The position numbers were made by a program, and so were the translations under genes. From a virus, in UHGV virus genome UHGV-0117806: a stretch of DNA of 22,166 nucleotides; one strand, given 5' to 3'. Of this stretch, positions 7,547 through 21,716 are shown one piece after another. A model generated the notes under the pieces. It saw only the letters and a list, made by a program, of their open reading frames with translations, searched no databases and was not told where the DNA came from. Every line of letters begins with the position of its first letter. Position 1 is the first letter of the stretch.

Positions 7547-7559
7547 GGCTATTGTATGA
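7302..7559 (+). CDS. hypothetical Thr/Pro-rich protein with hydrophobic N-terminal segment (85 aa)
   Basis: ATG 7302 (MENFQRNRLKSMAYGVILATLAAVTVPAG…); stop overlaps ATG 7556 of next gene (ATGA). Start uncertain. Confidence 0.4.
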   Translation: MENFQRNRLKSMAYGVILATLAAVTVPAGQSLLMPGTTTSTATTALQMTPLPERPPVSLDGMLMDTIPARPATPDLPSTVTEAIV

Positions 7560-7744: not shown

Positions 7745-7779
7745 CCGACGAATAGGGGGGGGCATTAGCCCCTCAATCT

Positions 7780-8739: not shown

Positions 8740-8912
8740 TTTGCTCTCTCTTAGGGACTGACGTCTGAATAGAACTTCGGCAATGAGAACATTCTGCTAT
8801 GAATGCCACTTTAAATAAATGTCTGGTATGCCTGATTTTTCCTTTTGCGTGTCTTTTCGCCTTAATGCAACTCTTCACATCATCATAGAATTTGAGACAA
8901 TTAAACAATTAA

Positions 8913-8930
8913 GAAAACAACTTGTTTAAA
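8913..8930 (+). promoter_or_regulatory. palindromic operator-like motif (AAAACAA-C-TTGTTTAAA) 18 nt upstream of ATG 8948
   Basis: Member of the recurring AAAACAA-N(1-3)-TTGTTT family (see findings). Confidence 0.5.
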
Positions 8931-8947
8931 AGAATAAGGAAGAGCGC

Positions 8948-9526
8948 ATGTGTGAAAAATGCAAAAAAACTAATGCCAAAGTTGAAAGCGTGATTAAAAA
9001 AGTTGGTGCGGCCGAACTGGTTGAGATCATGGGTCTTGTGGTTGGTCACGAAGACGACGCCTCCCCTATTGACCGCCTTTTCAGCGTTCTCAAGTTCTCA
9101 AGCATGATTGATGATCCGATTGAAATTGTGATGCTGGCGCGTCATTTCGGCGAAGCGTATCTGGAAGAGAAAGAACGCGCCGACAAACTTAAGGCAACTC
9201 TGGAAATGGTAAGCAAGCCGAAGTGCTCACCGGATTCAGTCAAGGCAGATGAAACCAACGCCAGCAAAGATCGTGAAATCGCCGGGCTGAAGTCTTCTCT
9301 GGCGATGTTGCTGGCCGCTTTCAAACTGATGTCTTCCCAGGCTGGGTTCAAAATGCCTGAGCTGAACAGCGACGATCCGATGGCCCTTCGCCAGCTGTTG
9401 GGGGCAATGGCCGACCAGCTTGACGACACCAAGAGCCGTCTTGAAGACATGATGCGCGAGCTGACCCATCGCCACGACCTGAACAAACAGCCGCAGCCGC
9501 AAAAGATGCAGCCTTTACATCATTAA
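8948..9526 (+). CDS. hypothetical protein (192 aa)
   Basis: AAGGAAG then ATG 8948; preceded by the palindrome motif; followed by hairpin GGGGC-aaa-GCCCC (9534-9546). Confidence 0.7.
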   Translation: MCEKCKKTNAKVESVIKKVGAAELVEIMGLVVGHEDDASPIDRLFSVLKFSSMIDDPIEIVMLARHFGEAYLEEKERADKLKATLEMVSKPKCSPDSVKADETNASKDREIAGLKSSLAMLLAAFKLMSSQAGFKMPELNSDDPMALRQLLGAMADQLDDTKSRLEDMMRELTHRHDLNKQPQPQKMQPLHH

Positions 9527-9551
9527 TATATATGGGGCAAAGCCCCCTACT

Positions 9552-9971
9552 CTACTTTGCGGCGTCTAACAATAAGCCGCAATTTTCGCTCATGTATGCC
9601 GCAGTTGCCGGATTGCCTCTGTCATTATTCGAATTGTTCATTTCAGGGTGAGCGTCCCAGGCCACTGATTCCTGAGATGATAGATAGACGGCAAAGTCGA
9701 CGATTTCATCATCTCCGGTTTTAACGTTGCCAAGCAATTCATTTGCCTTTCTCCAGTGCTTCAGCGCGAGAATTCTGAACTGTTTTGCATTTTCAGCAGG
9801 CACTGCACTGGATTTGTCTGTGTAGATATTCGATATGTCGGCATAAAGAGCGCATTTAACATAGCTGGTTGCCCTGCCGGTCTCTTTAAAACCTTGCTCT
9901 GTGTTGTTGGCGTAGACATTCACAGCAAAAGCGCTGGCAATTCCCAGCAATATAATTTTCTTCATCATCAT
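9552..9971 (-). CDS. secreted protein with signal peptide (139 aa)
   Basis: N-terminus MMMKKIILLGIASAFAVNVYA is signal-peptide-like; no SD seen and exact start among three ATGs is uncertain. Confidence 0.55.
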   Translation of the reverse strand: MMMKKIILLGIASAFAVNVYANNTEQGFKETGRATSYVKCALYADISNIYTDKSSAVPAENAKQFRILALKHWRKANELLGNVKTGDDEIVDFAVYLSSQESVAWDAHPEMNNSNNDRGNPATAAYMSENCGLLLDAAK

Positions 9972-10096
9972 TACTCAATAAGGAGGCGACAAATATCTTA
10001 CGTGTAGTTGTCAGTTGAGTATTAAGCAAACTCAATAAACTTATAAGTATCTCCCTGTGCAGCTTGTGAATCCTTATTTATTACCTACTCAATTTT

Positions 10097-10130
10097 GAAA
10101 TAATAACACCAACAAAAAAACAATTTGTTT
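10097..10130 (+). promoter_or_regulatory. conserved promoter-operator module (TGaAATAAT extended -10-like box + AAACAATTTGTTT palindrome 10118-10130)
   Basis: gaaATAATAACACCAACAAaaAAACAATTTGTTT, 12 nt upstream of ATG 10143. Confidence 0.55.
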
Positions 10131-10142
10131 AATGGTGCAATC

Positions 10143-11828
10143 ATGAATACAGCCCTTTCCATCATTGACGCTATCACTCCAAACACTGATATCGACTACC
10201 GGCAGGAAATGAACGTTATCCACGAAATTGTGGCCGAGTGCGAGAAAGAGATCGCATTCATGCATCAGGTTCACGACTTCGTTTATGGCGACGAACGCCA
10301 CAGCATGATTAACCGCCTGCTGCGACTCAACCACCGGCCGGATGACGAGCGCACACGCTTTAACAGAGCCTGGTTGGACAAAGTCGACCTGGAATGGGTG
10401 AAACAGAACATCTGGGCTGAATACTGGAAGAAGGTCACGGATATGACCAACGTTCTGCTGATCATGCCAGCATCCCGCCGCGACGAGTGGCGTGAACAGT
10501 TTATCGAGGGCAAGCAGGAAACGATCAAGACTGACAGAACTGGCTATCAAATGAAGGTTAAAGAGTTCGTTGGTGTACCTGAGTTCAAAGCAGAAACGGT
10601 CATACCAACGATGCTTAATTTGCTGAATGACAGGCACAAATATCTCTCTGAGCGCGTGTATGGCTTGTTTAAGGCGTTGAGTCCTGCTCACAAGACCAAT
10701 AAGACGAACGGCTTCAGCGAGCGTCTGATCATCGCCGACTGCATTTCCGATTTCTGGCGGGACAGCGTCAGCGTTAACTACCGGAAAGAGGATTACATAG
10801 ACGACCTGCGCGTCATGTTGCATTTCTTTGCACACAAAGAATTTATCACCATCAACCGCACGGCCGAGATGCTGTCAGCTGCGTATCGAGCAAATGACTG
10901 CCAGACCGGCGACTGGATGAATGTCGACGGAAACCTGATGCGTGTGAAGATGTTTAAGAACGGCAACGTTCACTTTGAAATACATCCTGACGTAGCCTGG
11001 AAGCTGAATGAGGTGCTGGCTTACAGTATGCCTGCAGCAATCCCGGCGCCATGCCGTACTGCACCCAAAACACGGGCACCAAAAGAGTTCGGGTTAATCC
11101 AGAAGACGATCTCCGAGCCGGTTCGTACCGCGCTGCGCAACGGGCGATTCAGCAAAGATAAAGGCGTCTGGTACTTCTCTGATTCCAACCTCCAGAAGTC
11201 GCAGGTGGAAGAGCTTGAGCGCACACTGAACTTCATTGGCGGCGTGCAGGAGAAAAGGCACTGGCAGTTCCCGTATGAGATCGGCCATACGCTCAATACG
11301 ATTGTGGCCACCGGCTTAATACCGGATACAAAATCACACCAGTTCTACCCTACCCCGCGTTTGATAGCGGAGTACGTTGCCAGAGCCATCGAGCTGAAGC
11401 AAGGTGAGAAGCTGCTGGAGCCTGAAGCCGGGCGCGGAGATCTGCTGGCCTGCATCGACGCCAATCCGGAAGACGTTACCTGCATAGAAGTCGCACCTCT
11501 CTTCGCTGATATCCTGCTTGGCAAGGGGTACACAAATACGGTCTGCTGCGACTTCATGAAGTGGTCTGAGGTCAACGCAGGTTATCAGTTCGACAAAATC
11601 GTTATGAACCCGTCCTACTCTCTTGACCGTCACAGAGAGCATACGCTGGCCGCGCTGGAGCATCTTAAAGTCGGCGGGCGACTGGTGGCTGTATTGCCGG
11701 GTGATGCGCCAGTTCTGAACTGGATGTCGCTGGATAATTACGTTTATGCCAAAGGGAAGTCGTTTACTGACGAGTTTGAAGACACCGGAATCACTGTCAG
11801 CGTATACGTTTTCAAACGTGTAAAATGA
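10143..11828 (+). CDS. putative orphan DNA amino-methyltransferase with ~380-aa unrecognised N-terminal region (561 aa)
   Basis: C-terminal motifs in gamma-class order: FYPTP (motif X), LEPEAGRGDLL (motif I, SAM-binding), VCCDF, IVMNPSYS (motif IV variant NPSY). ATG 10143 in frame with track ORF 10125..11828. Confidence 0.8.
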   Translation: MNTALSIIDAITPNTDIDYRQEMNVIHEIVAECEKEIAFMHQVHDFVYGDERHSMINRLLRLNHRPDDERTRFNRAWLDKVDLEWVKQNIWAEYWKKVTDMTNVLLIMPASRRDEWREQFIEGKQETIKTDRTGYQMKVKEFVGVPEFKAETVIPTMLNLLNDRHKYLSERVYGLFKALSPAHKTNKTNGFSERLIIADCISDFWRDSVSVNYRKEDYIDDLRVMLHFFAHKEFITINRTAEMLSAAYRANDCQTGDWMNVDGNLMRVKMFKNGNVHFEIHPDVAWKLNEVLAYSMPAAIPAPCRTAPKTRAPKEFGLIQKTISEPVRTALRNGRFSKDKGVWYFSDSNLQKSQVEELERTLNFIGGVQEKRHWQFPYEIGHTLNTIVATGLIPDTKSHQFYPTPRLIAEYVARAIELKQGEKLLEPEAGRGDLLACIDANPEDVTCIEVAPLFADILLGKGYTNTVCCDFMKWSEVNAGYQFDKIVMNPSYSLDRHREHTLAALEHLKVGGRLVAVLPGDAPVLNWMSLDNYVYAKGKSFTDEFEDTGITVSVYVFKRVK

Positions 11829-11886
11829 TAGGTAAATACTTACCTAATTTATGTAAGAATAGAGCCACTTTATCAGAGGTAAACAC

Positions 11887-12576
11887 ATGAGCGAAAAATC
11901 GAGAATTACATTCGCCAGCGTTGATCAGGCGAAGCTGCCATTTAATTTAGTGCTACAGGGGAATGCAGGCGCGCCTGCCGGAACCATCAAAATCGACAAG
12001 GAGCTTGTGACGTTCGAAGGTAACTTTGATGAATCGGCGCAGGTTTTTATCGACCATCTGGCACGCCGTTGGAGCCAGCAGTGGAGAGACCTTGAGAAAT
12101 GCGCCAATGAGTTTGACCGGTTCATGGACGCAATGGACACAGCAAAAGAGGCTCTGGCTGCCGGCACTCCGTTAGATTTGGAGTCTCTGTTTAAAGGTGA
12201 AATGGCCTCTGCGATGTTCGCAACCATGTTTGCCGGTGAGTTTGTTCGTAGCGGGGCCAGAAACTACCTGGAGCTGGAGTACGACGTTCCTGAAATGGGT
12301 GAGTTTACCGTCACCATTCAACGCAAAGAAGGTAAGACTCCTGGCGAACGTATCGCTGAACTTGAGGCCGTTGTGGATCAGCGTAACGGCGAGTGCGTCC
12401 GTTTGATTAATGAACGTGATGCGCTGCGCGAAGAGCAGCTAAACAAAGGCTCGAACACACGCGCGGCCGCAGACATCTACTTCCAGTTGGTTGAGGAATG
12501 CCAGATCCCGCCAGGTGGCTCTTTGGTCGAGTTCGTTCGCGAATTGCAGGAGAAAGCAGAGAGGTGCGCGGCATGA
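11887..12576 (+). CDS. hypothetical protein (229 aa)
   Basis: ATG 11887, 58 nt after the methyltransferase stop; intergenic near-palindrome AGGTAAATACTTACCT (11830-11845). Confidence 0.7.
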   Translation: MSEKSRITFASVDQAKLPFNLVLQGNAGAPAGTIKIDKELVTFEGNFDESAQVFIDHLARRWSQQWRDLEKCANEFDRFMDAMDTAKEALAAGTPLDLESLFKGEMASAMFATMFAGEFVRSGARNYLELEYDVPEMGEFTVTIQRKEGKTPGERIAELEAVVDQRNGECVRLINERDALREEQLNKGSNTRAAADIYFQLVEECQIPPGGSLVEFVRELQEKAERCAA

Positions 12577-12812
12577 ATGATCTGCTTGTCGAGCGAGTCT
12601 CCGCTTTTGTTAAGTCCCCGCTGAATAATCCCCTCACCCGCGGTGAGCAGATGGAGCTGGCAAGGTGGTTTCTGCGTATCCATGAGCAGATGGAAGTTTT
12701 TAAACAGTTGCCGGATCTGCCCATTACAGACGGCCAAATTCAGTGTGCCACTTCAGTACGGTCGACGATGACAACGACGCAAACCTGCTTTTCGTCAAAT
12801 CCGAAATCATAA
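12573..12812 (+). CDS. hypothetical small protein (79 aa)
   Basis: ATG 12573 overlaps stop of 11887..12576 (ATGA). C-terminal ~20 residues look low-complexity, so a frameshift or shorter product is possible. Confidence 0.45.
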   Translation: MNDLLVERVSAFVKSPLNNPLTRGEQMELARWFLRIHEQMEVFKQLPDLPITDGQIQCATSVRSTMTTTQTCFSSNPKS

Positions 12813-12858
12813 AGTTGCCCAGGGAGAGAGAGAAATCGACGCAGAGCAGGCCCGCAAT

Positions 12859-13074
12859 ATGTGGGACGAGGCAGAAAACGCTGATGACGTAAAAGAAAGT
12901 TGCTGCTGTTTCGGTGTCGGTAACGAACTGCTGAGTCTGTTTGGTGACGATCCGTGGTATGCCGGTTGGCCAACAGTGCCAAACCCCAGATACCAATACC
13001 TAGAACGTATCATGAACGCGGTACGTGATGGGCTGAAAGAGCTTCACAATCAGATGAGAGAAGCAATTGGTTAA
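12859..13074 (+). CDS. hypothetical small protein (71 aa)
   Basis: ATG 12859 with weak SD; frame is open upstream to 12772 without an alternative start. Confidence 0.4.
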   Translation: MWDEAENADDVKESCCCFGVGNELLSLFGDDPWYAGWPTVPNPRYQYLERIMNAVRDGLKELHNQMREAIG

Positions 13075-13112
13075 GTGCTATAGTCAGGCGCTTTTATATT
13101 TATGGAGTGAAT

Positions 13113-13811
13113 ATGAAAAATATCCTACTGGCATCATTGTTGGTGGCATCGCCGGCTGTATTTGCAGCCAGCTTTGACTGCCAAAAGGCTTCGGCAGAAA
13201 TCGAACACAAAATCTGCGATAACGAACGCCTGTCAAAATTAGACGAACAACTTAGCTCTACCTATTCCAACGCACTCAAAGCAAACCCGGGGGACGCAGA
13301 CGCCTTAAAGACGGTTCAGCGTCAATGGGTAAGTATGCGTGGAAAACTCACTGGTGATAAGGCTCTGGAGTTGGCTTATCTAATCCAAATTAATGGCCTC
13401 AAGAGTTTGGATGGTTCGGCCAGCACTGCGGTGGTCAATGAGACACCAAAGCCTGTGCAGAAACAGCCTGAAGTTCAGGAAAAGACAAGCAAGGCAGACA
13501 CAAAGCAGGCTGAGAGCGGTAAAAAGCTAACTCTGGAGTCATTCCGAGCTAAGTATATTGAAGTTGACGGTGAATACTACAGCACGACATCCCTTCCCAG
13601 AGGGAGTTCGTTCTTGTTCACCTGCGCAAGTCGTATCGCAGATGACCAGGTGAATATTTGGAAGAAGGTGGCAGCCAAAGAGGGCAAGATCGATCTCTTC
13701 TTTGAACTTGAGAATCGAATACATACCGCAATGCTGAATGCCAATTTTCAGAAGCTGAATAGTGATTTAACTAAAACAGGCATTTGCGATCTGATTACCG
13801 CTGTTCCGTAA
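13113..13811 (+). CDS. secreted DUF1311 / LprI-like protein (232 aa)
   Basis: GGAG 13104-13107 then ATG 13113; signal peptide MKNILLASLLVASPAVFA; DUF1311-type pattern C-x2-A-x4-E-x2-IC…L-x2-LD…QRQWV. Confidence 0.7.
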   Translation: MKNILLASLLVASPAVFAASFDCQKASAEIEHKICDNERLSKLDEQLSSTYSNALKANPGDADALKTVQRQWVSMRGKLTGDKALELAYLIQINGLKSLDGSASTAVVNETPKPVQKQPEVQEKTSKADTKQAESGKKLTLESFRAKYIEVDGEYYSTTSLPRGSSFLFTCASRIADDQVNIWKKVAAKEGKIDLFFELENRIHTAMLNANFQKLNSDLTKTGICDLITAVP

Positions 13812-13818
13812 GCCAGAT

Positions 13819-13840
13819 AAGGCCACTAGTTGTGGCCTTA
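13819..13840. terminator. bidirectional hairpin AAGGCCAC-tagtt-GTGGCCTT
   Basis: Sits between convergent genes 13113..13811 (+) and 13867..14070 (-); immediately followed by palindrome AAACAATTTGTTT (13840-13852). Confidence 0.55.
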
Positions 13841-13866
13841 AACAATTTGTTTTATAGATGGTGAAA

Positions 13867-14070
13867 TTAATAGAACCCCAGGCGAACCAAATCCATTGGG
13901 CAGAATAGACCTTCCACACCTTCGATAGACACGCAGTCAGAGCGGCGTAATTGTTCTTCTGATTTGCCTTCTCCGCAGATTTCCTTGATGACTCCCGTTG
14001 CACCATTCGTTGCCACCATCACTCGGCTGCCGGTAGTGATAGCGTTACGGTTGCGATCATAGGTCTTCAT
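13867..14070 (-). CDS. hypothetical small protein (67 aa)
   Basis: Strong SD on minus strand (AAGGAGG, 5 nt before ATG at 14070). Confidence 0.65.
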
Positions 14071-14154
14071 CGTTTCCTCCTTTCACATGGGTCAAATCAG
14101 GTTTCAAAAATTGCCGTTTTCCATGTAGGTGCGATTTGCAAAATCTCAAGTGCC

Positions 14155-14169
14155 AAAACAAATTGTTTT
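14155..14169. promoter_or_regulatory. perfect 15-bp palindrome AAAACAAATTGTTTT in divergent intergenic region
   Basis: Same motif family as upstream of the small-gene array; about 85 nt from minus-strand ATG 14070 and 89 nt from plus-strand ATG 14258. Confidence 0.5.
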
Positions 14170-14223
14170 CACCATCTTGTTATTCAATTAACCCGTAAAG
14201 TTGACCAGTACCGTAATAAATAA

Positions 14224-14243
14224 TACTGTTTATATGTACAGTA
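14224..14243 (+). promoter_or_regulatory. LexA (SOS) box overlapping a sigma70-like promoter
   Basis: TACTGTTTATATGTACAGTA matches CTGT-N8-ACAG. TTGACC (14201-14206) + 17-bp spacer + TACTGT places the box over the -10; 15 nt upstream of ATG 14258. Confidence 0.65.
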
Positions 14244-14257
14244 TTGCGAGGCGAGCA

Positions 14258-14524
14258 ATGGGCAGCAAGAATTCTAAATATGTGATCGTCTATAGGGGCG
14301 AAGCACTCAAGCACCTAATACCCGGACAGTTCGTTTTCTTCCAACGTGAAAAAGAATACGGTGGGGGGTTCTGGCTTGGTAAAACGCATGAGGATGGGTT
14401 CGAATTTGTGCTGGAGCAACCCACTTCACTAAGTTACGGGCTTGCGTATCTGATCAGATTGTCGAGTGTCGAAGCCAGGTATATGGAGTTTGTTGATGAC
14501 ATAGACGACTTCAAACTCACCTAG
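14258..14524 (+). CDS. hypothetical SOS-box-associated small protein (88 aa)
   Basis: GAGG 14247-14250 then ATG 14258; track ORF 14201..14524 begins at a TTG that is the putative -35. Confidence 0.6.
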   Translation: MGSKNSKYVIVYRGEALKHLIPGQFVFFQREKEYGGGFWLGKTHEDGFEFVLEQPTSLSYGLAYLIRLSSVEARYMEFVDDIDDFKLT

Positions 14525-14564
14525 TCATCCCTTAAACATTTTGTTTTCTACCTTTTGTTATTTG

Positions 14565-14597
14565 AGATAATAACACAAATAAGAAAACAAATTGTTT
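14565..14597 (+). promoter_or_regulatory. conserved promoter-operator module (TGaGATAAT + AAAACAAATTGTTT)
   Basis: gaGATAATAACACAAATAAGAAAACAAATTGTTT then AAGGAG and ATG 14610; a second degenerate palindrome AAACATTTTGTTT lies at 14534-14546. Confidence 0.55.
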
Positions 14598-14609
14598 AAG
14601 GAGTTGATC

Positions 14610-14846
14610 ATGTTCGGAACCGCAAAAGACATCATCGAAAAGCTGGAGAACTACCCAGAAGATGAGCCGCTGCTGATGGTGATGTGGCACAAGGAAGATG
14701 TAGGTGAAGTGCGACCAGACCTGACTGACGAACAGTGCGTTCAGGTTTTGCGAAAAATCAAAGAGTGCCATGACACCAGCGTCGGCGTGAATTGGGATGT
14801 CATTTCTGACACGGCCAACATACTGTTTCCAAAGGAGAAGGCATGA
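14610..14846 (+). CDS. hypothetical small acidic protein (78 aa)
   Basis: AAGGAG 14598-14603 then ATG 14610; stop overlaps next start. Confidence 0.7.
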   Translation: MFGTAKDIIEKLENYPEDEPLLMVMWHKEDVGEVRPDLTDEQCVQVLRKIKECHDTSVGVNWDVISDTANILFPKEKA

Positions 14847-15163
14847 TGCTGAAAATCACCGAATCGTATAAGACGGCGGTGATCAGCACCGCCCACGTAA
14901 CGGCAGCGGATTCAGAACGGCTACCCATTGCCTGCTTCGACCCACTTACTGATCGCGGGTTGAATTGGGTACACGGTACACAGTACGGCTGGATTGTTCG
15001 TGCTGGAATGCGAGGGAATGACTGGAAGGAAGAACTGCGTGAGTACGGCATTTCCCAAGAGGCGATCTCCAACATACAGACCATACTGGATGACGGCTTT
15101 GACGTGGTTCACTTCGATTGCGACGCCGAGCTGGTGGATGGGCTACCTGCATGGGAATGGTGA
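14843..15163 (+). CDS. hypothetical acidic protein (106 aa), coupled
   Basis: AAAGGAGAAGGC then ATG 14843 overlapping upstream stop (ATGA). Confidence 0.7.
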   Translation: MMLKITESYKTAVISTAHVTAADSERLPIACFDPLTDRGLNWVHGTQYGWIVRAGMRGNDWKEELREYGISQEAISNIQTILDDGFDVVHFDCDAELVDGLPAWEW

Positions 15164-15239
15164 TCGCCCACTCGTTGAGTAATCATGTCATATAAGCGAA
15201 GAAAATTGGTAACATAGTACCGCTTTTTAATCTGATGGA

Positions 15240-15809
15240 ATGGATGTGATGGAAACCCAGAACCAACAAACAAAACCTCTGAATAATGCTTATGCGTGGC
15301 TTCTAGCTTTACTGCCTCTCTTCTTTGGAGCACCGCCAGATGAGTATTTGAATTATGCAATAGTGATAGGTGGAGTCGCTGGACTCGGCTTTCTGGTGGC
15401 TGACAGAATGGCATTGTCTGATGCAGGGTATGAACCACCGGCCATCCTGTGGGGAGTATTTCTCCTTCCGGTCTATCTCTGGAAACGTGCCACCGTTACA
15501 AAAGGCAGTCGACTTCCTTTTATCGTAATCGTCGCGTTGCTTGCTGGTAACATCTTCATCGGTATCACACACCAGGAAGAGGTTGCTCTTGAAGAAGCGG
15601 CTTGTCCTCTCGTAACGACCATTCTGAAAGAGAATAACGGAACCACAGCGCCGAAATGTATGAAGGTGACAATTCAGGACAAGGTGACGGACAAGTTCTA
15701 TAAAGCGACGGCTACGCTGGATAACGGCAACGACATAAACGTTACTCTGGAACTGACCGGCGAAAGAAACTTTTATGTGCGCGTTCCGGATGCCTATCTG
15801 AACAACTAA
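15240..15809 (+). CDS. hypothetical membrane protein (189 aa; start 15240 or 15249)
   Basis: Two or three hydrophobic segments near the N-terminus (AYAWLLALLPLFFGA, AIVIGGVAGLGFLVA, ILWGVFLLPVYLW) then a soluble C-terminal domain. Confidence 0.6.
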   Translation: MDVMETQNQQTKPLNNAYAWLLALLPLFFGAPPDEYLNYAIVIGGVAGLGFLVADRMALSDAGYEPPAILWGVFLLPVYLWKRATVTKGSRLPFIVIVALLAGNIFIGITHQEEVALEEAACPLVTTILKENNGTTAPKCMKVTIQDKVTDKFYKATATLDNGNDINVTLELTGERNFYVRVPDAYLNN

Positions 15810-16883
15810 CGGCTGCAGCTCGTTGATATTGGCGGTCACAAATTGAGGATTTCTATAAGAGTCCGTTGATCGCCACTTTCCCCACCACCCTACCCCACTC
15901 AATCCCAGGCGTGACAAGGCATTTAAGCCAATTACACCCATAAGAAAACAAATAAATAACACATCAACGTAAAGTCAACGCTTTCCCCTGATTTGGTCTA
16001 AAAAGTTGATGTTTTCGCACGCCATCTCTTATACCCAAATCCAGCGTACCAGAATCCATCTCCCTGCGACCAAAACGTCAAAAACGACTCGTGATACCAC
16101 CCAAAAACAGACACGCTCAGAAGCGCTCCCGTTGCGTTATATTGGACATCTAAACAAGTTGTTTTCAGACACAAGAAAACAAGCTAACCACACCCACAGG
16201 AAACCCAGAGACGCCATTACCCACATTCCCAAAAACAACCAACCTCTTTATGGCAGGCTACTGAAAAGACCCACCTCTTCTTCCCAGGCTACCGGACAAC
16301 CAACCTAACTTTCACAGGCAACTCGAAACATTCATACATGCGATACCCACTATACGCCATTCCCCAAACAGCGAATAAACACCAGAACCACTGAAACTCT
16401 AACGAAGCCTGTTACCGCAAGGACTCCCTCAATCACCAAAGACACGAAACAGAACATTCGCGGGGAAACGCCATTACTCAATACACGAATAACCACAAAA
16501 GCCTTTCACGCTCTCAAGGTAAACAACTCAAATACAATAACGAAAGGAATCGCCCACCTGCCATTACTCCATACACAGAGAAGAACAATCACCAAAACAA
16601 CGAGAACAACCCTGACGAAAACACAGAGATTAATCACCTCAAGAAGAACGAAACCACATACGCCGGTAGAGAGTACAACCCACCCATTTCACCCACAGGA
16701 ATAGTCGCCGTATTGAGCGTTATCAGAGAGAAGGTTTATACCCACATAAGAGAGAAAATTCGTGGGAGGTATAAGTGGGAAGGGAAGGAGGGGTATCGCC
16801 ACTTTCTTCGTATAAATTCAAGCCATAGTTTTCGTCCCCCGTAACGTCCCTATCCACCCCTTCGGTCAGCCTTCGGGCCATCC

Positions 16884-17063
16884 AGGGAAAAGGCCATGTC
16901 CCTTTTCAGGAACGGGAACGTCGCCGCAGGGAAAAGGCTGGAGGTTTTTCAGGGAAACGGTGGGAATCCCGCTATACGAACCGGGAAAAGGCTGGCTGCC
17001 GGTCGGGAAACGGGTACATCCCGGTACAGAGTGAGAGACGACTGCGGGAGCAGTGCGGGAAAT
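16884..17063. repeat. array of about 7 direct GGGAAA(A/C)GG-type repeats
   Basis: CAGGGAAAAGG 16884, CAGGAACGGGA 16908, CAGGGAAAAGG 16927, CAGGGAAACGG 16950, CGGGAAAAGGC 16982, CGGGAAACGGG 17004, CGGGAAATC 17055; spacing 23-32 bp. Track ORF 16896..17339 here is non-protein-like. Confidence 0.6.
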
Positions 17064-17330
17064 CTTCGGGAGTGCGCCTTACTCTTCACTCGCCTGAAAA
17101 TCGCGGGGGAGTGTCATTCCCTCTCGTGCAGCTACTGGACTCCAGTCTGCCAGACCATCATCGGATCTCAAGCGATTTCAGTAGGTTTTCGGGGAGAAGG
17201 ATATTCTGCCCACCAGCCCCGCGGCGCGCGTAGAGCAGAATATCGTAAATACTGGCTCCCGTGTCGTTCCCGGATATTCACTGCCCAGCCTGGCTTTCCC
17301 GACATAAAATCCTTTTTCGCCTTTGTCTTA

Positions 17331-17368
17331 TTGCGATAATAACACCAACAAGTAAACAACATATTTAG
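17331..17368 (+). promoter_or_regulatory. conserved promoter module (TGcGATAAT + degenerate palindrome)
   Basis: TTGCGATAATAACACCAACAAGTAAACAACATATTTAG upstream of ATG 17399. Confidence 0.5.
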
Positions 17369-17398
17369 ACGTTATAGAAACGAAGTGAGGATGAAGAG

Positions 17399-17617
17399 AT
17401 GATTAAGATGCCTGTGACGGTTGAGGTGTGGGGCGTGGATTCCCTGGCTGAGTGTCTGGATGCAGTGGGGCCGGAGTTGTACCGCAAGTTGTGGTCGTTC
17501 GTCCCGGCAGAAGGGGAATCGCCCAAAGGGAAGGATATCTGGCACCTGCTTAGTGAAGATGAAAAGCGGGAGCTGGTGGACGCGGTACACAGCGAGTTCC
17601 CGGACGACGAAGATTAA
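17399..17617 (+). CDS. hypothetical small strongly acidic protein (72 aa)
   Basis: GTGAGG then ATG 17399; about 18 Asp/Glu versus 7 Lys/Arg by my count, ending …EFPDDED. Confidence 0.7.
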   Translation: MIKMPVTVEVWGVDSLAECLDAVGPELYRKLWSFVPAEGESPKGKDIWHLLSEDEKRELVDAVHSEFPDDED

Positions 17618-17688
17618 GAGTGAGACCACCAGCACGGTGGCTTTTGTCGCTATTAACCTCCGGGGCAGCGCAGCACCGTAACGATATA

Positions 17689-17746
17689 CTTTGTGGCCGT
17701 TTTCTTACTGGTATTGTTTACGCAATTCAGAAAACAACATGTTTAA
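17689..17746 (+). promoter_or_regulatory. conserved promoter-operator module, class II (TTGTGG…TGgTATTGT + AACATGTT palindrome)
   Basis: CTTTGTGGCCGTTTTCTTACTGGTATTGTTTACGCAATTCAGAAAACAACATGTTTAA; near-identical to the 18180-18236 module. Confidence 0.55.
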
Positions 17747-17756
17747 GGATTGCTTT

Positions 17757-18086
17757 ATGTTTGCAAATATCGACATCAACCAAATCAAGAAAATGACTCA
17801 AAAAGAGTTTGACCAGTTTTATGAGTTAGAAGGTTGGTCTTCCACGCTGATCAATTCGCGCTGGGTGCTTGAGCTGATGACTCGTGATGATGCTCCTGCT
17901 TTGATTATTTGCGACATGGGTGAAGATGCTGACTTTATGGATATGAGCGAATTTTGTGTGGACACATACAACCGCAGCCAGAAGTACTACTTCACATGCG
18001 ATAGCGAGAATGACGTGATTTCTAAGCTCTATCTTCACCTTGTCCAGCATTGGGACGTGCAGGAATTCCTTGAGTTATTCGCGTAA
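17757..18086 (+). CDS. hypothetical acidic protein (109 aa)
   Basis: AAGGA 17745-17749 then ATG 17757; followed by hairpin AAGCCAGC-accgcct-GCTGGCTT (18096-18118). Confidence 0.7.
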   Translation: MFANIDINQIKKMTQKEFDQFYELEGWSSTLINSRWVLELMTRDDAPALIICDMGEDADFMDMSEFCVDTYNRSQKYYFTCDSENDVISKLYLHLVQHWDVQEFLELFA

Positions 18087-18179
18087 GCCCAACCAAAGCC
18101 AGCACCGCCTGCTGGCTTAACTTCTCTGTAGCCGCAGGGAAGAACCACCTTTAGATAATTCATGTGCCTGAGCAATATG

Positions 18180-18236
18180 CTTTGTAGCCGTTTTTACACT
18201 GGTATTATTTACGCCATTGAGAAAACAATTTGTTTA
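18180..18236 (+). promoter_or_regulatory. conserved promoter-operator module, class II (TTGTAG…TGgTATTAT + AAACAATTTGTTT)
   Basis: CTTTGTAGCCGTTTTTACACTGGTATTATTTACGCCATTGAGAAAACAATTTGTTTA; palindrome 18223-18235, 12 nt before ATG 18247. Confidence 0.55.
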
Positions 18237-18246
18237 CGGAGTGGTG

Positions 18247-18558
18247 ATGAATACTTCATTGGTGCTGGGTCTTGCTGAAGGCCAGGAGAGAAAAGAAAAA
18301 CCAACCTTAATGGGGCATCTCACATTGCTGGATATCGTAGCGAATGGGACTTCTATCCGTCTGTTTCGTGAAAAAGCCATTACCTTCGACGCGGGCAATT
18401 TTACGCGCTATGTGATGGTAGTTCGTCGCCAGCGTGGAAGAGGGTGGATGTCGGTCCAGAAAATGTGGCCAGAGGACCAGCTTGAACTGGCGCTGATGGA
18501 AGCCAACCGTGTCGCCCAACAAGAGATCCAACGAGCGTCTGTTCAGGCGGTAGCTTAA
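18247..18558 (+). CDS. hypothetical basic protein (103 aa)
   Basis: GGAG then ATG 18247; Arg-rich (VMVVRRQRGRGW), unlike its acidic neighbours. Confidence 0.65.
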   Translation: MNTSLVLGLAEGQERKEKPTLMGHLTLLDIVANGTSIRLFREKAITFDAGNFTRYVMVVRRQRGRGWMSVQKMWPEDQLELALMEANRVAQQEIQRASVQAVA

Positions 18559-18593
18559 ACATGTGCAAGCAGTAGTTAGTCGAATGTACGACA

Positions 18594-18620
18594 GCCCCGC
18601 CAATCCTTCGGGGCTTTTTT
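18594..18620 (+). terminator. Rho-independent terminator
   Basis: GCCCCG-ccaatcctt-CGGGGC followed by TTTTTT. Confidence 0.75.
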
Positions 18621-18679
18621 GTATTGTAAGTACTTACTTATGATAATAAAATTAAAAATTAAACACTAAGGAGAGTGAA

Positions 18680-19075
18680 ATGACCGTTAAACGCGAAAAT
18701 CTGACCCTGGATATGTATTATGCATCAGAGACGGAAAATGGAGACAAAGTTGCAAAAATTACAATTGTGCTACGCGATAATGCCTCCGGCGAAGAAGTTC
18801 ACACCAGTACCTTAACTCGCACCGGCGAGGCGACAAAGGGGAAATATTCGGTGCGTTACCAAAGCATCAGTAATGCTTCTGACCCTTTACTGATAAAACT
18901 GGAAACTCATTTCCGTGGCGCGGATCAGACGTTGTTTGAAAATTTGATGAAAAAGGTCGATACGGTTTATACATCGAGTTTAAATACCAATAGTACCTGG
19001 ATGGGACAACACGGTCTGCGAATAATCTCCGGCGAAAAGATCGACACCATTGTCCCTGAAAGCGTATTCGCTTAA
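18680..19075 (+). CDS. hypothetical protein (131 aa)
   Basis: AAGGAG then ATG 18680; preceded by TGTAAGTACTTACTTA (18625-18640) and a TTGTAA-17-TAAAAT promoter-like pair; followed by terminator 19088-19110. Confidence 0.7.
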   Translation: MTVKRENLTLDMYYASETENGDKVAKITIVLRDNASGEEVHTSTLTRTGEATKGKYSVRYQSISNASDPLLIKLETHFRGADQTLFENLMKKVDTVYTSSLNTNSTWMGQHGLRIISGEKIDTIVPESVFA

Positions 19076-19087
19076 TCCTCTTTGAAT

Positions 19088-19110
19088 GGCGCGTAAACCG
19101 CGCCATTTTC
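19088..19110 (+). terminator. Rho-independent terminator
   Basis: GGCGCG-taaac-CGCGCC followed by ATTTTC; then palindrome AACAATTTGTT (19122-19132). Confidence 0.65.
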
Positions 19111-19192
19111 TTATGCCCGATAACAATTTGTTTTCTGCCTTATCTGATTTGTGAAAATGATTTCACTGAAGCAACTTAATAAGGAAACCATC

Positions 19193-19567
19193 ATGGGACT
19201 TGATATCTATATCGAGACGCAGCCTAAAAACGATCTGAATAACGAGGCATCCAGAAAGCAGGTTGCTTACTTCCGTAAGTTCAATGCGCTCGTTGGGTGG
19301 ATGGAGCGCAACGTAGGTGAAGTCGAAAATTGTGAGCTTTTAGAATTAACGATGAATGACATTTGTTTTCTGAAGACTCATTTGATGCACATAAACGAAA
19401 GTAATTGCGAAGAGTACTTGCCTACCCAGGAAGGTTTTTTCTTCGGCAGTCAGGAGTACGATGAAGGTTACTGGCATGACGTGGGGGAGTTGAAAGAGAT
19501 TGTGGAAGATCTGATTAAGAACCACGACTTTCACAATAATAGACTGACCTTCTGCGCCTGGTGGTAA
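19193..19567 (+). CDS. hypothetical acidic protein (124 aa)
   Basis: AAGGA 19181-19185 then ATG 19193. Confidence 0.7.
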   Translation: MGLDIYIETQPKNDLNNEASRKQVAYFRKFNALVGWMERNVGEVENCELLELTMNDICFLKTHLMHINESNCEEYLPTQEGFFFGSQEYDEGYWHDVGELKEIVEDLIKNHDFHNNRLTFCAWW

Positions 19568-19569
19568 AT

Positions 19570-19713
19570 ATGGGCGATTTCAAGAAACGCCTGAAGGAGA
19601 GAGCCGAGATGGTCAGAAAGCGAAACGCCTCTTCTGTCATAAGATACGCAAGGCAGTTTAGTCGCAACAACAAATCAGTTGAGGAAAAGATCCTTAGCGT
19701 AATCGGGCGATAA
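19570..19713 (+). CDS. possible small basic peptide (47 aa; alternative start 19609 gives 34 aa)
   Basis: Below track cutoff. ATG 19570 two nt after stop of 19193..19567; internal ATG 19609 has AAGGAG 9 nt upstream; ends just before hairpin 19719-19742. Confidence 0.3.
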   Translation: MGDFKKRLKERAEMVRKRNASSVIRYARQFSRNNKSVEEKILSVIGR

Positions 19714-19718
19714 TTATT

Positions 19719-19742
19719 AAGGCCACCAGCATTGGTGGTCTT
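19719..19742 (+). terminator. hairpin terminator AAGGCCACCAG-catt-GGTGGTCTT followed by AAATGAC
   Basis: Near-identical to hairpin 20190-20213 and related to 13819-13840. Confidence 0.6.
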
Positions 19743-19850
19743 AAATGACTTTTAATAACCGAAGGTTAGTTTGAAACCTGGCTATCAACTTCCAGAACCT
19801 TTCTTGTGTATTCAGCCTGTATTAACTTCTTTTATGCCTTATCTACACTG

Positions 19851-19883
19851 CGATAATTACACCAACAAGAAAACAATATGTTT
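19851..19883 (+). promoter_or_regulatory. conserved promoter-operator module (TGcGATAAT + AAACAATATGTTT)
   Basis: CGATAATTACACCAACAAGAAAACAATATGTTTACG, then GAGG and ATG 19897. Confidence 0.55.
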
Positions 19884-19896
19884 ACGCAGTGAGGAT

Positions 19897-20184
19897 ATGC
19901 TCATGACTGATTTCACCATTACCCCTAAAGCACAAAATGTATTCCTTGAATCATGGCTGGACTTGCCGGAAACAGAACAGCAAGAAATGGATCATGTGGA
20001 ATATGACGAGCAGGTAAGCACGCGATTCTTCCACTTTGAGGGCTGCGTTTACGACATTGCCGACTTCATGCGAGATGACCGCTTCCCTGAATGGCACGCA
20101 AGCTATCCACTAAACGCCTTCGCCATGCTGATGATCCGTGTGGATGATTCAGGGGATACCATCGACATCGGTCTGCTCCACTAA
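19897..20184 (+). CDS. hypothetical acidic protein (95 aa; start 19897 or 19903)
   Basis: GAGG 19891-19894 then ATG 19897. Confidence 0.65.
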   Translation: MLMTDFTITPKAQNVFLESWLDLPETEQQEMDHVEYDEQVSTRFFHFEGCVYDIADFMRDDRFPEWHASYPLNAFAMLMIRVDDSGDTIDIGLLH

Positions 20185-20189
20185 AGAGT

Positions 20190-20213
20190 AAGGCCACCAA
20201 TGCTGGTGGCCTT
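20190..20213 (+). terminator. hairpin terminator AAGGCCACCA-atgc-TGGTGGCCTT followed by AAATGAC
   Basis: Perfect 10-bp stem directly after stop of 19897..20184. Confidence 0.65.
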
Positions 20214-20334
20214 AAATGACCATCCTGTTTCCCGCAGGCTAAAAACACCAACCTCTTACCTCCAGGCAACCGACAAACCCACCTGTTCCCGTCCGGCTAC
20301 CGCAACTTTCCACTTTGACGCCTTATTCGTACAA

Positions 20335-20367
20335 CGATAATTAACACCAACAAGAAAACAATTTGTT
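20335..20367 (+). promoter_or_regulatory. conserved promoter-operator module (GATAAT + AAAACAATTTGTT)
   Basis: CGATAATTAACACCAACAAGAAAACAATTTGTTATTTA, then AAGGA and ATG 20389. Confidence 0.55.
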
Positions 20368-20388
20368 ATTTACGATAAGGAATTAATC

Positions 20389-20871
20389 ATGAATTTTATC
20401 GCTACTGTAAACGCACCCGCACATGGCAATATCGCTGTAACGTTCTCTGATATTGAAAAACGAGTACTTGGTGCATGGCGCGACAATGAGACGGTAGAAC
20501 TGTCAGCACAAGAAAAATGCATTATTGCACGCGACATCATTTGCAATCGTCGTTACTCACGGGTAATTGAGAAAGCGTATGTCGCAAATTCTGGCTTCGG
20601 AACATTTGTCTTCCCGGTGCGCTCCGGGCGATTCTGCCAGTCCAAGCTGATTGAGTTCGCTACGCAGATTTCTGTCTGGATTAAAACTCAATCGTCGTTC
20701 AAATTTTCCGACGATGAAGCAGTATCGCAGGGGATGCGGATCGCCAACAATGCGATAAAATGCAAAAACATTACGTATGCCGCTGGCGTTGACACATGGA
20801 AACTGTTTTGCGCTAACTTTATGCTGAATGTATACGCAAGCAACCGCATCCACATCCTTGATGGCGTGTAA
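20389..20871 (+). CDS. hypothetical protein (160 aa)
   Basis: AAGGA then ATG 20389; followed by hairpin GGGCCAGAAACGGCCC + TTTCTCT (20881-20903). Confidence 0.7.
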   Translation: MNFIATVNAPAHGNIAVTFSDIEKRVLGAWRDNETVELSAQEKCIIARDIICNRRYSRVIEKAYVANSGFGTFVFPVRSGRFCQSKLIEFATQISVWIKTQSSFKFSDDEAVSQGMRIANNAIKCKNITYAAGVDTWKLFCANFMLNVYASNRIHILDGV

Positions 20872-20920
20872 CTGAGAAGAGGGCCAGAAACGGCCCTTTC
20901 TCTATAGCCACCAGCTGCCG

Positions 20921-21036
20921 CAGGGAAATTTTCAGAAACGGCGAGGAACGCATTCATGAGCCGACGGGAAACGGCCAAGATTTTTTCGGGAAACGGCGGG
21001 GGTCGCCTTTATGTAGAAAACTGAGCGGGAGAAACC
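20921..21036. repeat. second, shorter array of GGGAAA(A/C)GG-type repeats
   Basis: CAGGGAAATTT 20921, CGGGAAACGGC 20966, CGGGAAACGGC 20987, CGGGAGAAACC 21026; same motif as 16884-17063. Confidence 0.55.
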
Positions 21037-21470
21037 CGGAATCGCGCCAGAAATTGCGTAGCGGCGCTGGGGTAGCGCTGGTGGGGTTTCAGCCCCTGGG
21101 CCATCCAGATAGCTTTCGCTATGTGATTATGTGAATCCGTGGGTAAATCACTGTAAGCGCGTACACGTTGCCCAACGTGGCAATCATATGCGAGCGGATA
21201 CAAAACAACACAAAGAGCCGATCCGCGCCGACAAATAAACGCGGATCACATAGCAAGACTAAAAGCCAATGATTAACCATACTCTATAGCGCAATATAAC
21301 GCGTTTTAAGCGCGTTAATGTGTTAAGTAATGGGTATGTACTGACAAGGATATAAAAGCGCGTCTATGGCGTTATTTTGGTGCTTATTTTTATGTTGTTG
21401 GAGCGAGTTAAAGACAATAAAAAACGCGCCAATGATGGCGCGTTATGGTGGGAGTATTGGAAACGAAAAA

Positions 21471-21489
21471 AGCGCCCATAGTGGGCGCT
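21471..21489. repeat. 19-bp hairpin AGCGCCCA-tag-TGGGCGCT (copy 1)
   Basis: Identical copy at 21736-21754; the two flank the small minus-strand gene. This copy has A/T runs on both sides (terminator-like in both orientations). Confidence 0.6.
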
Positions 21490-21494
21490 CGATT

Positions 21495-21716
21495 TTATTT
21501 GTGTAAACTAATTTTGAATCCCATTTCTACAAACGCTTTTAACATTAAAAATATATCAGCGTCATTCACGTCTGCTTTTTTTCGCTCCTGGTCGTTCAAT
21601 AAGTCAATTTTGCGCGTTGTTTCATTTATAAACTCGACTGCGCGCCCAGCGATCCCAGCGATGCGATTAACATAATATTCATTATGGACGTTAACGCCAG
21701 CGATAAGAACAAACAT
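21495..21716 (-). CDS. hypothetical small protein (73 aa)
   Basis: Minus-strand SD AAGGAG 7 nt before ATG at 21716; flanked by identical 19-bp hairpins. Confidence 0.55.
   Translation of the reverse strand: MFVLIAGVNVHNEYYVNRIAGIAGRAVEFINETTRKIDLLNDQERKKADVNDADIFLMLKAFVEMGFKISLHK

Follow-up and report, generated by a model that had tools for sequence, protein, structure and literature searches.

The palindrome AAACAA-N-TTGTTT, hereafter motif 1, is an operator-like site that recurs throughout the genomes of SSU5-type phage-plasmids, at about twenty promoters. The window analysed here (22,166 nucleotides) is part of one such SSU5/pHCM2-like phage-plasmid and not of a conjugative plasmid. Indeed, 753 of 783 matching PLSDB records are typed as non-mobilizable, so there is no conjugative leading region for the earlier note's comparison; its alternative, a phage early region, agrees with an SSU5-like phage-plasmid as the replicon.

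Scanning the window with up to one mismatch returned 12 sites, starting at 8915, 10118, 13840, 14156, 14534, 14585, 16152, 17732, 18223, 19121, 19871 and 20356. These are the same twelve that the earlier note had listed, with nothing more elsewhere in the window; shuffled windows averaged 0.72 sites and never had more than 3, and the strict pattern occurs at seven loci against none expected. The spacer, previously given as one to three nucleotides, is exactly 1 nt at all 12 sites. A thirteenth, degenerate copy (AAACAACATATTT, 17354-17366, two mismatches) belongs to the module at 17331, which was rightly recognised as a module but wrongly listed without a palindrome. Among 85 sites, many of them orthologous and therefore not independent, the core positions are invariant in 73-85 and the central base is free; the two half-sites are conserved to the same degree, and variants are single half-site changes that go uncompensated. 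The extended motif reads AGA-AAACAAnTTGTTT-A around the core, its AGA flank being found on either side and inverted where the site covers the -35 box.

In 82 of the 85 sites the -10 box has its final T 20 nt ahead of the palindrome centre, which bears out the proposal of promoter and palindrome modules at fixed distance and places the motif, by prediction, at about +8 to +20 (type A, centre near +14). In the inverted type B arrangement the site covers the -35 box with its centre at about -38 (14534 and 19121), which argues that motif 1 is recognised as DNA. The window contains the class I boxes (TGnGATAAT + ACACCAACAAG) as well as the class II boxes just as they had been described, and class I modules have some 45 nt in common beyond the palindrome. 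The -10 boxes are near consensus and often preceded by TG, and a promoter with this combination needs no -35 box. A generic sigma-70 scan found 5 promoter-like sites, below the 14.6 in shuffles, because most modules are missing a good -35 box.

Control by one regulator throughout the island, as first supposed, does not hold. Genes 11887 and 18680 have upstream a distinct operator-like palindrome family, motif 2 (GTAAGTACTTAC), and gene 14258 has a perfect LexA box, for which 0.03 would be expected by chance. The features of the island are these:

8896-8901: -10 box GACAAT with upstream TG, before site 8915
8915..8927, plus: motif 1 AAACAACTTGTTT, type A; serves gene 8948-9526
8948..9526, plus: 192-aa protein, phrog_5508, N-terminal CxxC; conserved with motif 1 upstream in SSU5, Cyrano, pLAO18, pJN2-26 and diverged relatives
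10118..10130, plus: motif 1 AAACAATTTGTTT, type A, class I, TGAAATAAT + ACACCAACAA; serves the methyltransferase gene
10143..11828, plus: orphan 561-aa DUF4942 / class I SAM-dependent DNA methyltransferase (Pfam PF13708, E 1e-20; phrog_6263 'DNA methyltransferase'; annotation of a near-identical record agrees)
11832..11843, unstranded: motif 2 GTAAATACTTAC, upstream of gene 11887-12576
13840..13852, unstranded: motif 1 where the lprI-like and ydfZ genes converge, directly 3' of terminator hairpin 13819-13839, serving no plus-strand gene; orthologues at SSU5 87625 and pLAO18 90063
14156..14168, minus: motif 1, type A, about 90 nt upstream of ydfZ (13867-14070); oriented minus, TTGAAT at -25 to -20
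14224..14243, plus: perfect LexA box TACTGTTTATATGTACAGTA, covering the promoter of gene 14258-14524
14258-14524: gene for an 88-aa protein, phrog_2100
14534..14546, plus: motif 1 AAACATTTTGTTT, type B, over the -35 box; pairs with site 14585, 51 bp away, on one promoter
14585..14597, plus: motif 1 AAACAAATTGTTT, type A; TGAGATAAT at 14563-14571
14610-14846 (DUF1380 in RefSeq) and 14846-15163 (DUF5983): acidic gene pair behind site 14585
15850..17330, plus: conserved, strongly strand-asymmetric non-coding region containing tandem units of 30 nt (16239-16322) and repeats of GGGAAAMGG (16884-17013)
16152..16164, plus: motif 1, starting a conserved A- and C-rich non-coding stretch, with 1.2 kb of non-coding DNA downstream; orthologues at SSU5 90740, Cyrano 94605, pLAO18 87755 and pJN2-26 25869
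17354..17366, plus: degenerate motif 1, after class I box TGCGATAAT (17332-17340); the pLAO18 orthologue retains AAACAACGTGTTT
17399-17617: acidic gene behind the degenerate site
17732..17744, plus: motif 1, class II module; serves acidic gene 17757-18086
18223..18235, plus: motif 1, class II module; serves basic 103-aa gene 18247-18558
18626..18637, unstranded: motif 2 GTAAGTACTTAC in the TTGTAT–GATAAT spacer, promoter of gene 18680-19075
19121..19133, plus: motif 1 TAACAATTTGTTT, type B, covering the -35 box of the TGTGAAAAT promoter, after terminator 19085-19109; serves acidic gene 19193-19567
19717..19744, plus: terminator hairpin TAAGGCCACCAnnnnTGGTGGCCTTA of a repeated kind, with related copies at 13819-13839 and 20189-20214
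19871..19883, plus: motif 1, class I module TGCGATAAT
19903-20184: acidic 93-aa gene behind site 19871, pI 4.1
20356..20368, plus: motif 1 AAACAATTTGTTA, class I module; serves basic 160-aa gene 20389-20871
17626-17640, 18097-18119, 18594-18620, 19085-19109, 20880-20897: further hairpins

Eight plus-strand starts (8948, 10143, 14610, 17399, 17757, 18247, 19903 and 20389) lie 18-43 nt downstream of a site. The statement that most palindromes precede a plus-strand Shine-Dalgarno sequence and ATG thus stands for seven perfect or near-perfect sites and the degenerate copy, but not for the remaining sites, which occur in other contexts. For the genes themselves, the count of 18 D/E versus 7 K/R in gene 17399-17617 is exact, a pI below 4.7 is found in 7 of 21 proteins (7046-20871), and a hairpin with a T run follows at least eight genes.

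Beyond the window, each of four complete relative genomes holds 17-20 copies of motif 1 (SSU5 20, Cyrano 18, Klebsiella pJN2-26 17, and pLAO18 18 against 2.3 expected), and in all genomes examined it ranks top in abundance among 6-mer palindromes. Its placement on the four full replicons is non-random, at gene starts, and not the random scatter against which the earlier note had set its proposal. Nor is the regulon specific to the island: motif 1 recurs at orthologous spots before terS, parA, dnaB and the cobT-like gene of the cobT/dnaE operon in 4/4 genomes, and upstream of nrdB in 3/4. Every IMG/VR contig with several exact copies is SSU5-like, and the motif is unchanged across elements from E. 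coli, Salmonella and Klebsiella. SSU5-like genomes hold both palindrome families in dispersed form, and the divergent region beside their HTH repressor gene has motif 2, not motif 1.

Comparison with relatives revealed that cassette content varies exactly at the modules. The breaks in homology with SSU5 along the window, at 8912, 10062, 17376, 17759/18176 and 19144/19830, all fall at modules, and homology picks up again at 8912, beside site 8915. The cassette of gene 17757-18086 is missing in SSU5 and has a module copy on each side, one SSU5 module aligning to both of the window modules that bracket the extra gene; the cassette of gene 19193-19567 is likewise missing in SSU5. The island may thus be a hypervariable slot in which small genes would move as cassettes of promoter-operator, gene and terminator, gained or lost via recombination between repeated modules.

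What acts on motif 1 can be approached through Cyrano, a relative with 72-89% identity across the shared parts of the island. In its lysogen, RNA-seq gave 5-25 normalised reads for genes behind motif-1 promoters, where the background median was 9.8. The exception among motif-1 promoters is that of the parA operon, at 50-89 (PMC9928086 S1 Table). Motif 1 is probably, though far from certainly, a double-stranded DNA operator of a dimeric repressor from the SSU5-like phage-plasmid itself. The single repressor and operator of the earlier note remain the most economical reading. Motif 1 is built into predicted extended -10 sigma-70 promoters at one of two positions, +8 to +20 or over the -35 box, and a protein bound at either would collide with RNA polymerase.

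Low lysogen expression could equally reflect a missing activator, and motif 1 might mark a promoter class that a factor of the element, absent in lysogens, switches on at a set lytic time. The poor -35 boxes of many modules and the type B centre near -38, a class II activator position, agree with this; yet we consider it unlikely, as most centres lie near +14, typical for repressors and rare for activators, the near-consensus -10 boxes make a -35 box dispensable, and the parA operon has motif 1 yet is expressed in the lysogen. Slightly less likely again is action in RNA, with motif 1 as the 5' leader target of a translational repressor, the suspect being an FljA-family protein. Salmonella FljA binds fliC mRNA, blocking its translation. 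Transcripts are predicted to include the type A sites, 5-30 nt ahead of the ribosome-binding site. Every SSU5-like element has an FljA-family gene, about 1 kb past the right window end (SSU5_121 and CYRAN_114 match PF03614 at E 1e-80). It is found in 12/12 SSU5-like phages of the collection, six of them from Klebsiella, a host without flagella, making host flagellin unlikely as the sole target. Against an RNA target, the perfect dyad with its 1-nt centre cannot form a hairpin and its variants are non-compensatory, and the extended motif is inverted at the sites covering the -35 box, which lie upstream of the start site. Nor does the leader of E. coli fliC have such a palindrome, although an fljA(z66) plasmid turned motile E. 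coli non-motile, an effect that the authors of that study credit to that FljA (PMC2652032).

The constancy of motif 1 across E. coli, Salmonella and Klebsiella elements would also suit a host protein common to Enterobacterales, IHF or another global regulator, tying the element to host physiology, and 7 of the 9 specified positions of the textbook IHF consensus (WATCAANNNNTTR) match. IHF sites, however, are asymmetric and degenerate, whereas the halves of motif 1 are almost invariant even at positions free in IHF; its clusters are restricted to SSU5-like elements, and we know of no enterobacterial regulator with such a site, leaving this explanation improbable. Finally, the cassette edges, the module duplicated around an inserted gene and the sequence common to class I modules might suggest a duplicated ancestral promoter with no regulatory role of its own, a mere recombination substrate for cassette shuffling. 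This we regard as very improbable, since the sites outside the island (parA, dnaB, cobT-like, nrdB, terS) have only the 16-nt core in common, not the whole module, and that core persists where overall nucleotide identity is 70-80%, even as central base and flanks drift.

If a repressor is indeed responsible, our leading but tentative candidate is a protein of about 118 aa encoded right after the type Ib parA, which by sequence pattern looks like a ribbon-helix-helix protein. Motif 1 follows the promoter of parA itself, and the surroundings of the par operon have no other repeat array. The candidate is nearly invariant among E. coli, Salmonella and Klebsiella elements; copies diverged by 48-64% retain KSRTMSxEDE and FTRSDVIRAAI, and their elements retain the palindrome. 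Searches did not bear this pattern out statistically: Pfam gave no match for it, hhalign against CopG a probability of 0.4%, and its AlphaFold monomer (pLDDT 64) no Foldseek match; nor was a lineage found in which both protein and site have changed. Were the repressor to come from the par operon, the release of lytic promoters at induction would be unexplained.

The arrangement recalls several known systems. In P1, one immunity-type repressor, C1, has more than a dozen operators dispersed over a large temperate phage/plasmid, at or just after promoters, and the stoperators of cluster A mycobacteriophages are similarly dispersed. The P1 operator is asymmetric, 17 bp long and has a known repressor, whereas SSU5-like elements have a 13-bp dyad with a candidate binder only, and two motif families. 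KorB (OB sites, IncP RK2) and omega (pSM19035) are partition-linked binders repressing many operons via short sites that are dispersed; motif 1 and the KorB operator TTTAGCSGCTAAA have a 6-1-6 layout in common, and SSU5-like parA has motif 1 behind its own promoter. In contrast to KorB, the candidate is small, follows a type Ib parA and is no ParB/KorB homologue, its binding to motif 1 being putative, and motif-1 targets, unlike those of KorB and omega, include phage lytic genes. The PeSL (promoter-early stem-loop) elements, which Arbiol, Comeau and Krisch in 2010 are said to have described as mobile regulatory cassettes of T4-type phages, resemble the island as a hyperplastic region of small unknown genes, each between a repeated early promoter and a stem-loop, with content differing at the repeats. 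They differ in phage family and sequence, and the SSU5-type repeat includes a palindromic operator and recurs beyond the variable region, on core operons.

Samuel et al. (2024, PMC11541004) described anti-defence islands in the leading regions of plasmids. The island shares with these its small, often acidic uncharacterised genes and orphan methyltransferase, predicted to be first expressed upon entry; however, the SSU5-like family is without a conjugation system or oriT, the island has ordinary double-stranded sigma-70 type promoters and no ssDNA promoters, and by Pfam and PHROGs it is without ardA, klcA, psiB and ssb. Pfam and PHROGs revealed no known anti-defence family beyond the orphan DUF4942 methyltransferase. 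An anti-defence function of the island is at most a suggestion from context.

Taken together, a repressor acting at motif 1 would control about twenty promoters per genome, for replication (dnaB, cobT/dnaE), nucleotide supply (nrdB), partition (parA) and packaging (terS), with 12-13 of them belonging to the island. During plasmid carriage, with repressor present, motif-1 promoters would be off; upon entry into a naive cell they would fire at once, because such a cell holds no repressor, and then shut down, so that the element may open its stay in a new host with a short burst of expression.

In nucleotide comparison, positions 8000-21500 of the window share 99.7% identity with E. coli IncFIB plasmids. 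Their matches comprise 783 plasmid records, from Klebsiella, Escherichia, Enterobacter, Yersinia and Salmonella, and 753 of these are typed as non-mobilizable. The same region aligns with Salmonella phage SSU5 (62% aligned, 89% identity), as it does with other SSU5-like phages, and in the complete relative pLAO18 (111,874 bp) repA is accompanied by genes for capsid, tail, terminase, DNA polymerase and partition. Judged by sequence comparison, the window therefore belongs to an SSU5/pHCM2-type phage-plasmid rather than to a conjugative plasmid, sharing homology and synteny with SSU5 and with non-mobilizable IncFIB plasmids that bear phage structural genes. Clinical E. coli, Salmonella Typhi, Shigella, Klebsiella and Yersinia pestis (pMT1) commonly carry such elements, whose gene control is essentially undescribed; the motif strings discussed below had no occurrence in the searchable literature. 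A deletion junction lies at about 4899-4902, within the ORF at 4882-5268. Its left side matches SSU5 at ~63.3 kb and its right side at 77.9 kb, so that the element lacks ~14.6 kb relative to SSU5, including the sbcCD-like, nrdAB, thymidylate synthase and DHFR genes, and a Dam methyltransferase gene at the junction is truncated to 128 aa.

A scan for AAACAA-N-TTGTTT (at most one mismatch; the strict pattern was scanned too) recovered exactly the twelve palindromes that the earlier note had listed and none elsewhere in the window, where 0.72 would be expected by chance from shuffled sequence. The palindrome, hereafter motif 1, is thus real, and the spacer that had been given as one to three bases is a single base in every site. 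The boxes described with it, TGnGATAAT-type extended -10 (class I) and TTGTrG…TGgTATTrT (class II), are present in the sequence, and a degenerate thirteenth copy, AAACAACATATTT at 17354-17366, comes after the class I box at 17332-17340. When all 6-mer palindromes were counted, motif 1 proved the commonest in every genome. Among IMG/VR contigs, those with several exact copies of AGAAAACAANTTGTTT were all SSU5-like, single matches elsewhere being unrelated.

Motif-1 sites in four complete relatives
pLAO18: 18 sites (2.3 expected)
SSU5: 20 sites
Cyrano: 18 sites
Klebsiella pJN2-26: 17 sites

About two thirds of these sites lie inside the island of small genes. The remainder stand directly upstream of terS (two copies), type Ib parA, a DnaB-like helicase gene, the cobT-like/dnaE operon, nrdB and a DUF2591 gene. 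Motif 1 therefore occurs in many copies at the promoters of separate operons, at 17-20 sites per genome against ~2 expected and with fixed spacing to the -10 box, and is not specific to the island.

The anatomy of the sites was derived by aligning 85 of them, taken from five sequences and oriented according to their flanks. Core positions are conserved in 73-85 of the 85 sites and the central base is free, with AGA preceding the core and usually A following it. In 82 of the 85, the base 20 nt before the centre is a T, which closes a -10 hexamer such as GATAAT or TATTAT, in many cases with TG in front of it. In this arrangement, type A, the predicted transcription start is ~13 nt before the centre and the palindrome covers about +8 to +20. 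In type B (14534, 19121 and 13840 in the window) the palindrome comes after a terminator hairpin and is centred near -38, overlapping the -35 box of the promoter that follows; its AGA flank is inverted there, reading TCT (within TTTTCT). Both types occur at the DUF1380 promoter, 51 bp apart. A generic sigma-70 promoter scan missed most modules, as promoter and motif 1 together are termed here, and is uninformative for extended -10 promoters.

The simplest reading is that a symmetric protein recognises the site on duplex DNA, since the dyad is unable to fold with a one-base loop, its variants alter one half-site without compensation in the other, and the extended motif is seen in both orientations. 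Overlap with RNA polymerase is the classical geometry of a repressor, and we infer that a protein bound at either the type A or the type B position would overlap the polymerase in this way.

The published transcriptome of E. coli LF82 carrying Cyrano, a relative that ciprofloxacin induces, lists every Cyrano gene (PMC9928086, S1 Table).

Expression in the Cyrano lysogen, in normalised reads (PMC9928086; background median 9.8)
terS, behind motif 1: 7
dnaB, behind motif 1: 21
cobT-like gene, behind motif 1: 8
nrdB, behind motif 1: 13
DUF4942 methyltransferase gene, behind motif 1: 8
Island genes CYRAN_101 to 111, behind motif 1: 5-25
CYRAN_109, without its own motif-1 site: 58
parA operon, behind motif 1: 50-89, on in the lysogen

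These data from a relative support repression of motif-1 promoters in the plasmid state. Promoters that are silent for want of an activator would give the same picture. The island promoters possess good -10 boxes and lack motif 2, a different palindrome family described below, and something must therefore hold them down.

The leading candidate for the protein that binds motif 1 is the ParA partner, a product of ~118 aa encoded outside the window. An ORF of 117-119 aa abuts the gene for a ParA of 221-222 aa in SSU5, Cyrano, pLAO18, pJN2-26 and the diverged relatives L016-L020, and the layout is that of a type Ib system, in which a small gene directly follows a Walker-type parA whose product lacks an N-terminal DNA-binding domain. 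A perfect motif-1 site follows parA's own promoter, and a search near the par operon for a centromere-like repeat array found none besides motif 1. The partner is almost invariant across hosts. Copies that are 48-64% diverged retain KSRTMSxEDE and FTRSDVIRAAI, and the elements that carry a diverged partner retain the palindrome upstream of parA and dnaB. A search for covariation of protein and site turned up no lineage in which both had changed: relatives at 48-64% identity keep the protein motifs and the site, and an IMG/VR peptide scan gave close relatives only. The pattern SRTMSLEDE...FTRSDVIRAAI, the one feature to do so, suggests a ribbon-helix-helix fold, as would be expected of a type Ib partition adaptor. 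The ParA partner had no match in Pfam or in a PDB sequence/profile search, and hhalign against CopG returned a probability of 0.4%. Its AlphaFold monomer (pLDDT 64) places a disordered tail before helices, and a Foldseek search with this model found nothing. The gene appears misannotated in Cyrano, where CYRAN_29 (29975-30334) is called a RelE/ParE toxin, and in SSU5, where SSU5_034 (31231-31521) has a late start that gives 96 aa instead of ~118.

Other proteins were considered as binders. A protein of 92 aa, whose gene adjoins that of a UvsW-like helicase, has a similar look by eye, is expressed in the Cyrano lysogen and is listed as a further candidate. Two ParB-like proteins were rejected as the lysogenic binder, being silent in that lysogen. 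The helix-turn-helix (HTH) repressor CYRAN_45 is unlikely, as motif 2 occupies its own control region; furthermore, SSU5 lacks the gene yet retains motif 1. An FljA-family gene ('repressor of phase-1 flagellin', PF03614, E 1e-80) lies ~1 kb past the right end of the window (SSU5 96897-97415; Cyrano 100780-101301; pLAO18 81094-81621) and is core in 12 of the 12 SSU5-like phages of the collection. Six of these are from Klebsiella, which is free of flagella, and host flagellin is therefore unlikely to be the sole target of the protein. The gene is conserved even in Klebsiella elements. Its product would suggest a rival reading in which the motif acts at the RNA level, but the leader of E. coli fliC lacks a palindrome resembling motif 1. 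Taking the ParA partner as the binder, it could conceivably be both partition adaptor and global silencer, with the ~20 sites of 13 bp serving as centromere and as operators. That single small protein would then underlie segregation, the silencing of lytic genes and, on entry into a new cell, a burst of island expression free of repressor that delivers the orphan methyltransferase and the changing acidic anti-defence proteins, a scheme that we consider rather improbable.

Two further regulatory inputs reach the island. Motif 2, (GATAG)GTAAGTACTTAC(CTATC), is found at 25-29 sites per SSU5-like genome (at most two mismatches), in intergenic regions that extend to the structural operon; one copy occupies the divergent region that separates the gene for CYRAN_45 from its neighbour. 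These sites are probably the operators of the immunity repressor, comparable to those of P1 C1 or to stoperators. Copies in the window include those upstream of genes 11887 and 18680.

Motif-2 copies in the window
199-210
4704-4719
5705-5716
6900-6911
11832-11843
18626-18637
21334-21345

A perfect LexA box, TACTGTTTATATGTACAGTA (TACTGT-N8-ACAGTA), lies at 14224-14243 over the promoter of gene 14258-14524, 15 nt before the start codon. This gene, which encodes 88 aa (phrog_2100, unknown function), could be an SOS-controlled antirepressor. Cyrano, although inducible by ciprofloxacin, lacks it.

Alignment of the window with SSU5 is interrupted at 8912, 10062, 17376, 17759/18176 and 19144/19830, in every case at a module. 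An extra gene at 17757-18086 lies between two copies of a class II module, both of which align to one SSU5 module, and another at 19193-19567 is flanked by a shared gccttatct promoter segment. Hairpin terminators follow the island genes as had been described, with the recurrent form TAAGGCCACCA....TGGTGGCCTTA. Cassettes of promoter plus stem-loop (PeSL) have been described for T4-type phages. The island resembles them in that a repeated promoter and stem-loop bracket small ORFs and relatives differ at the repeats; the likeness is functional only, without sequence relationship between the modules.

A separate insertion on the minus strand, 7780-8739, holds an Mrr-like restriction endonuclease gene (PF04471, E 2e-21). 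Its right breakpoint falls exactly at the palindrome, 8912, and SSU5 and pLAO18 have in this slot an Ant/Rha antirepressor-like gene preceded by motif 1. The 1.5 kb at 15850-17330, with motif 1 at its head (16152), has no consistent ORF, is 70-84% identical across the SSU5-like family and is silent in the Cyrano lysogen. On the plus strand its first 850 bp are enriched in A and C (GC skew -0.24, AT skew +0.31), after which the sequence is G rich; Rfam gave no match here or anywhere in the window. Two families of repeats, both confined to the plus strand, lie close to class I promoter modules: tandem units of ~30 nt, CCAACCTnnT...CAGGCWAC (16239-16322 and 20220-20301, three copies each), and (C/A)GGGAAAMGG (16884-17013 and 20911-20996, 5-6 copies at one and 2-3 at the other).

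With regard to cargo, seven of 21 proteins have a pI below 4.7, and the earlier count of 18 acidic against 7 basic residues in one protein was exact. Pfam and PHROGs returned only DUF4942, LprI, YdfZ, DUF5983, Mrr_cat and 'unknown function' for the island proteins, and no ardA, klcA/ardB, psiB or ssb among the 21 proteins of 7046-20871, in agreement with the earlier reading. The DUF4942 / class I SAM methyltransferase (10143-11828) is the only one with a clear activity class and is an orphan, with no adjacent cognate endonuclease. An acidic protein of 93 aa (19903-20184) has homologues confined to the SSU5-like family, and its structure model (pLDDT 44) was unusable. In having an orphan methyltransferase among its putative early genes, the island does agree with anti-defence islands of conjugative leading regions. 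In other respects the suggested likeness fell away: the island lacks the oriT-side location, the family is typed as non-mobilizable and its relatives are phages with virion genes. It is nevertheless reasonable to regard the cargo as putative anti-defence genes. According to a recent survey, known anti-defence systems are few in the SSU5 group (bioRxiv 10.1101/2025.09.12.675607), and the island cassettes therefore constitute a short list of candidates for new ones. The family is not devoid of known anti-defence genes: in the diverged SSU5-like metagenomic contig L018, Sequestin (PF21825) and Acb2/Tad1 hairpin (PF24729) domains are encoded at 20064-20357, within another variable slot.

Taken together, our findings confirm the observation made in the earlier note and bear out part of its interpretation: a multi-site, promoter-overlapping regulon is supported, whereas its confinement to the island and the likeness of the island's setting to a conjugative leading region are not. 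We place the feature in a known class as an undescribed case, in which the multi-operator regulon of a temperate element is joined to repeated regulatory cassettes in a hypervariable region; it is akin to the P1 C1, KorB and omega regulons in its many promoter-overlapping copies of one short site. An operator code of this kind, with motif 1 on ~20 promoters and motif 2 on ~25 sites, would give handles on the circuits of lysis-lysogeny and establishment in these phage-plasmids, and would likewise point to the genes that should be the earliest expressed when the element enters a cell.
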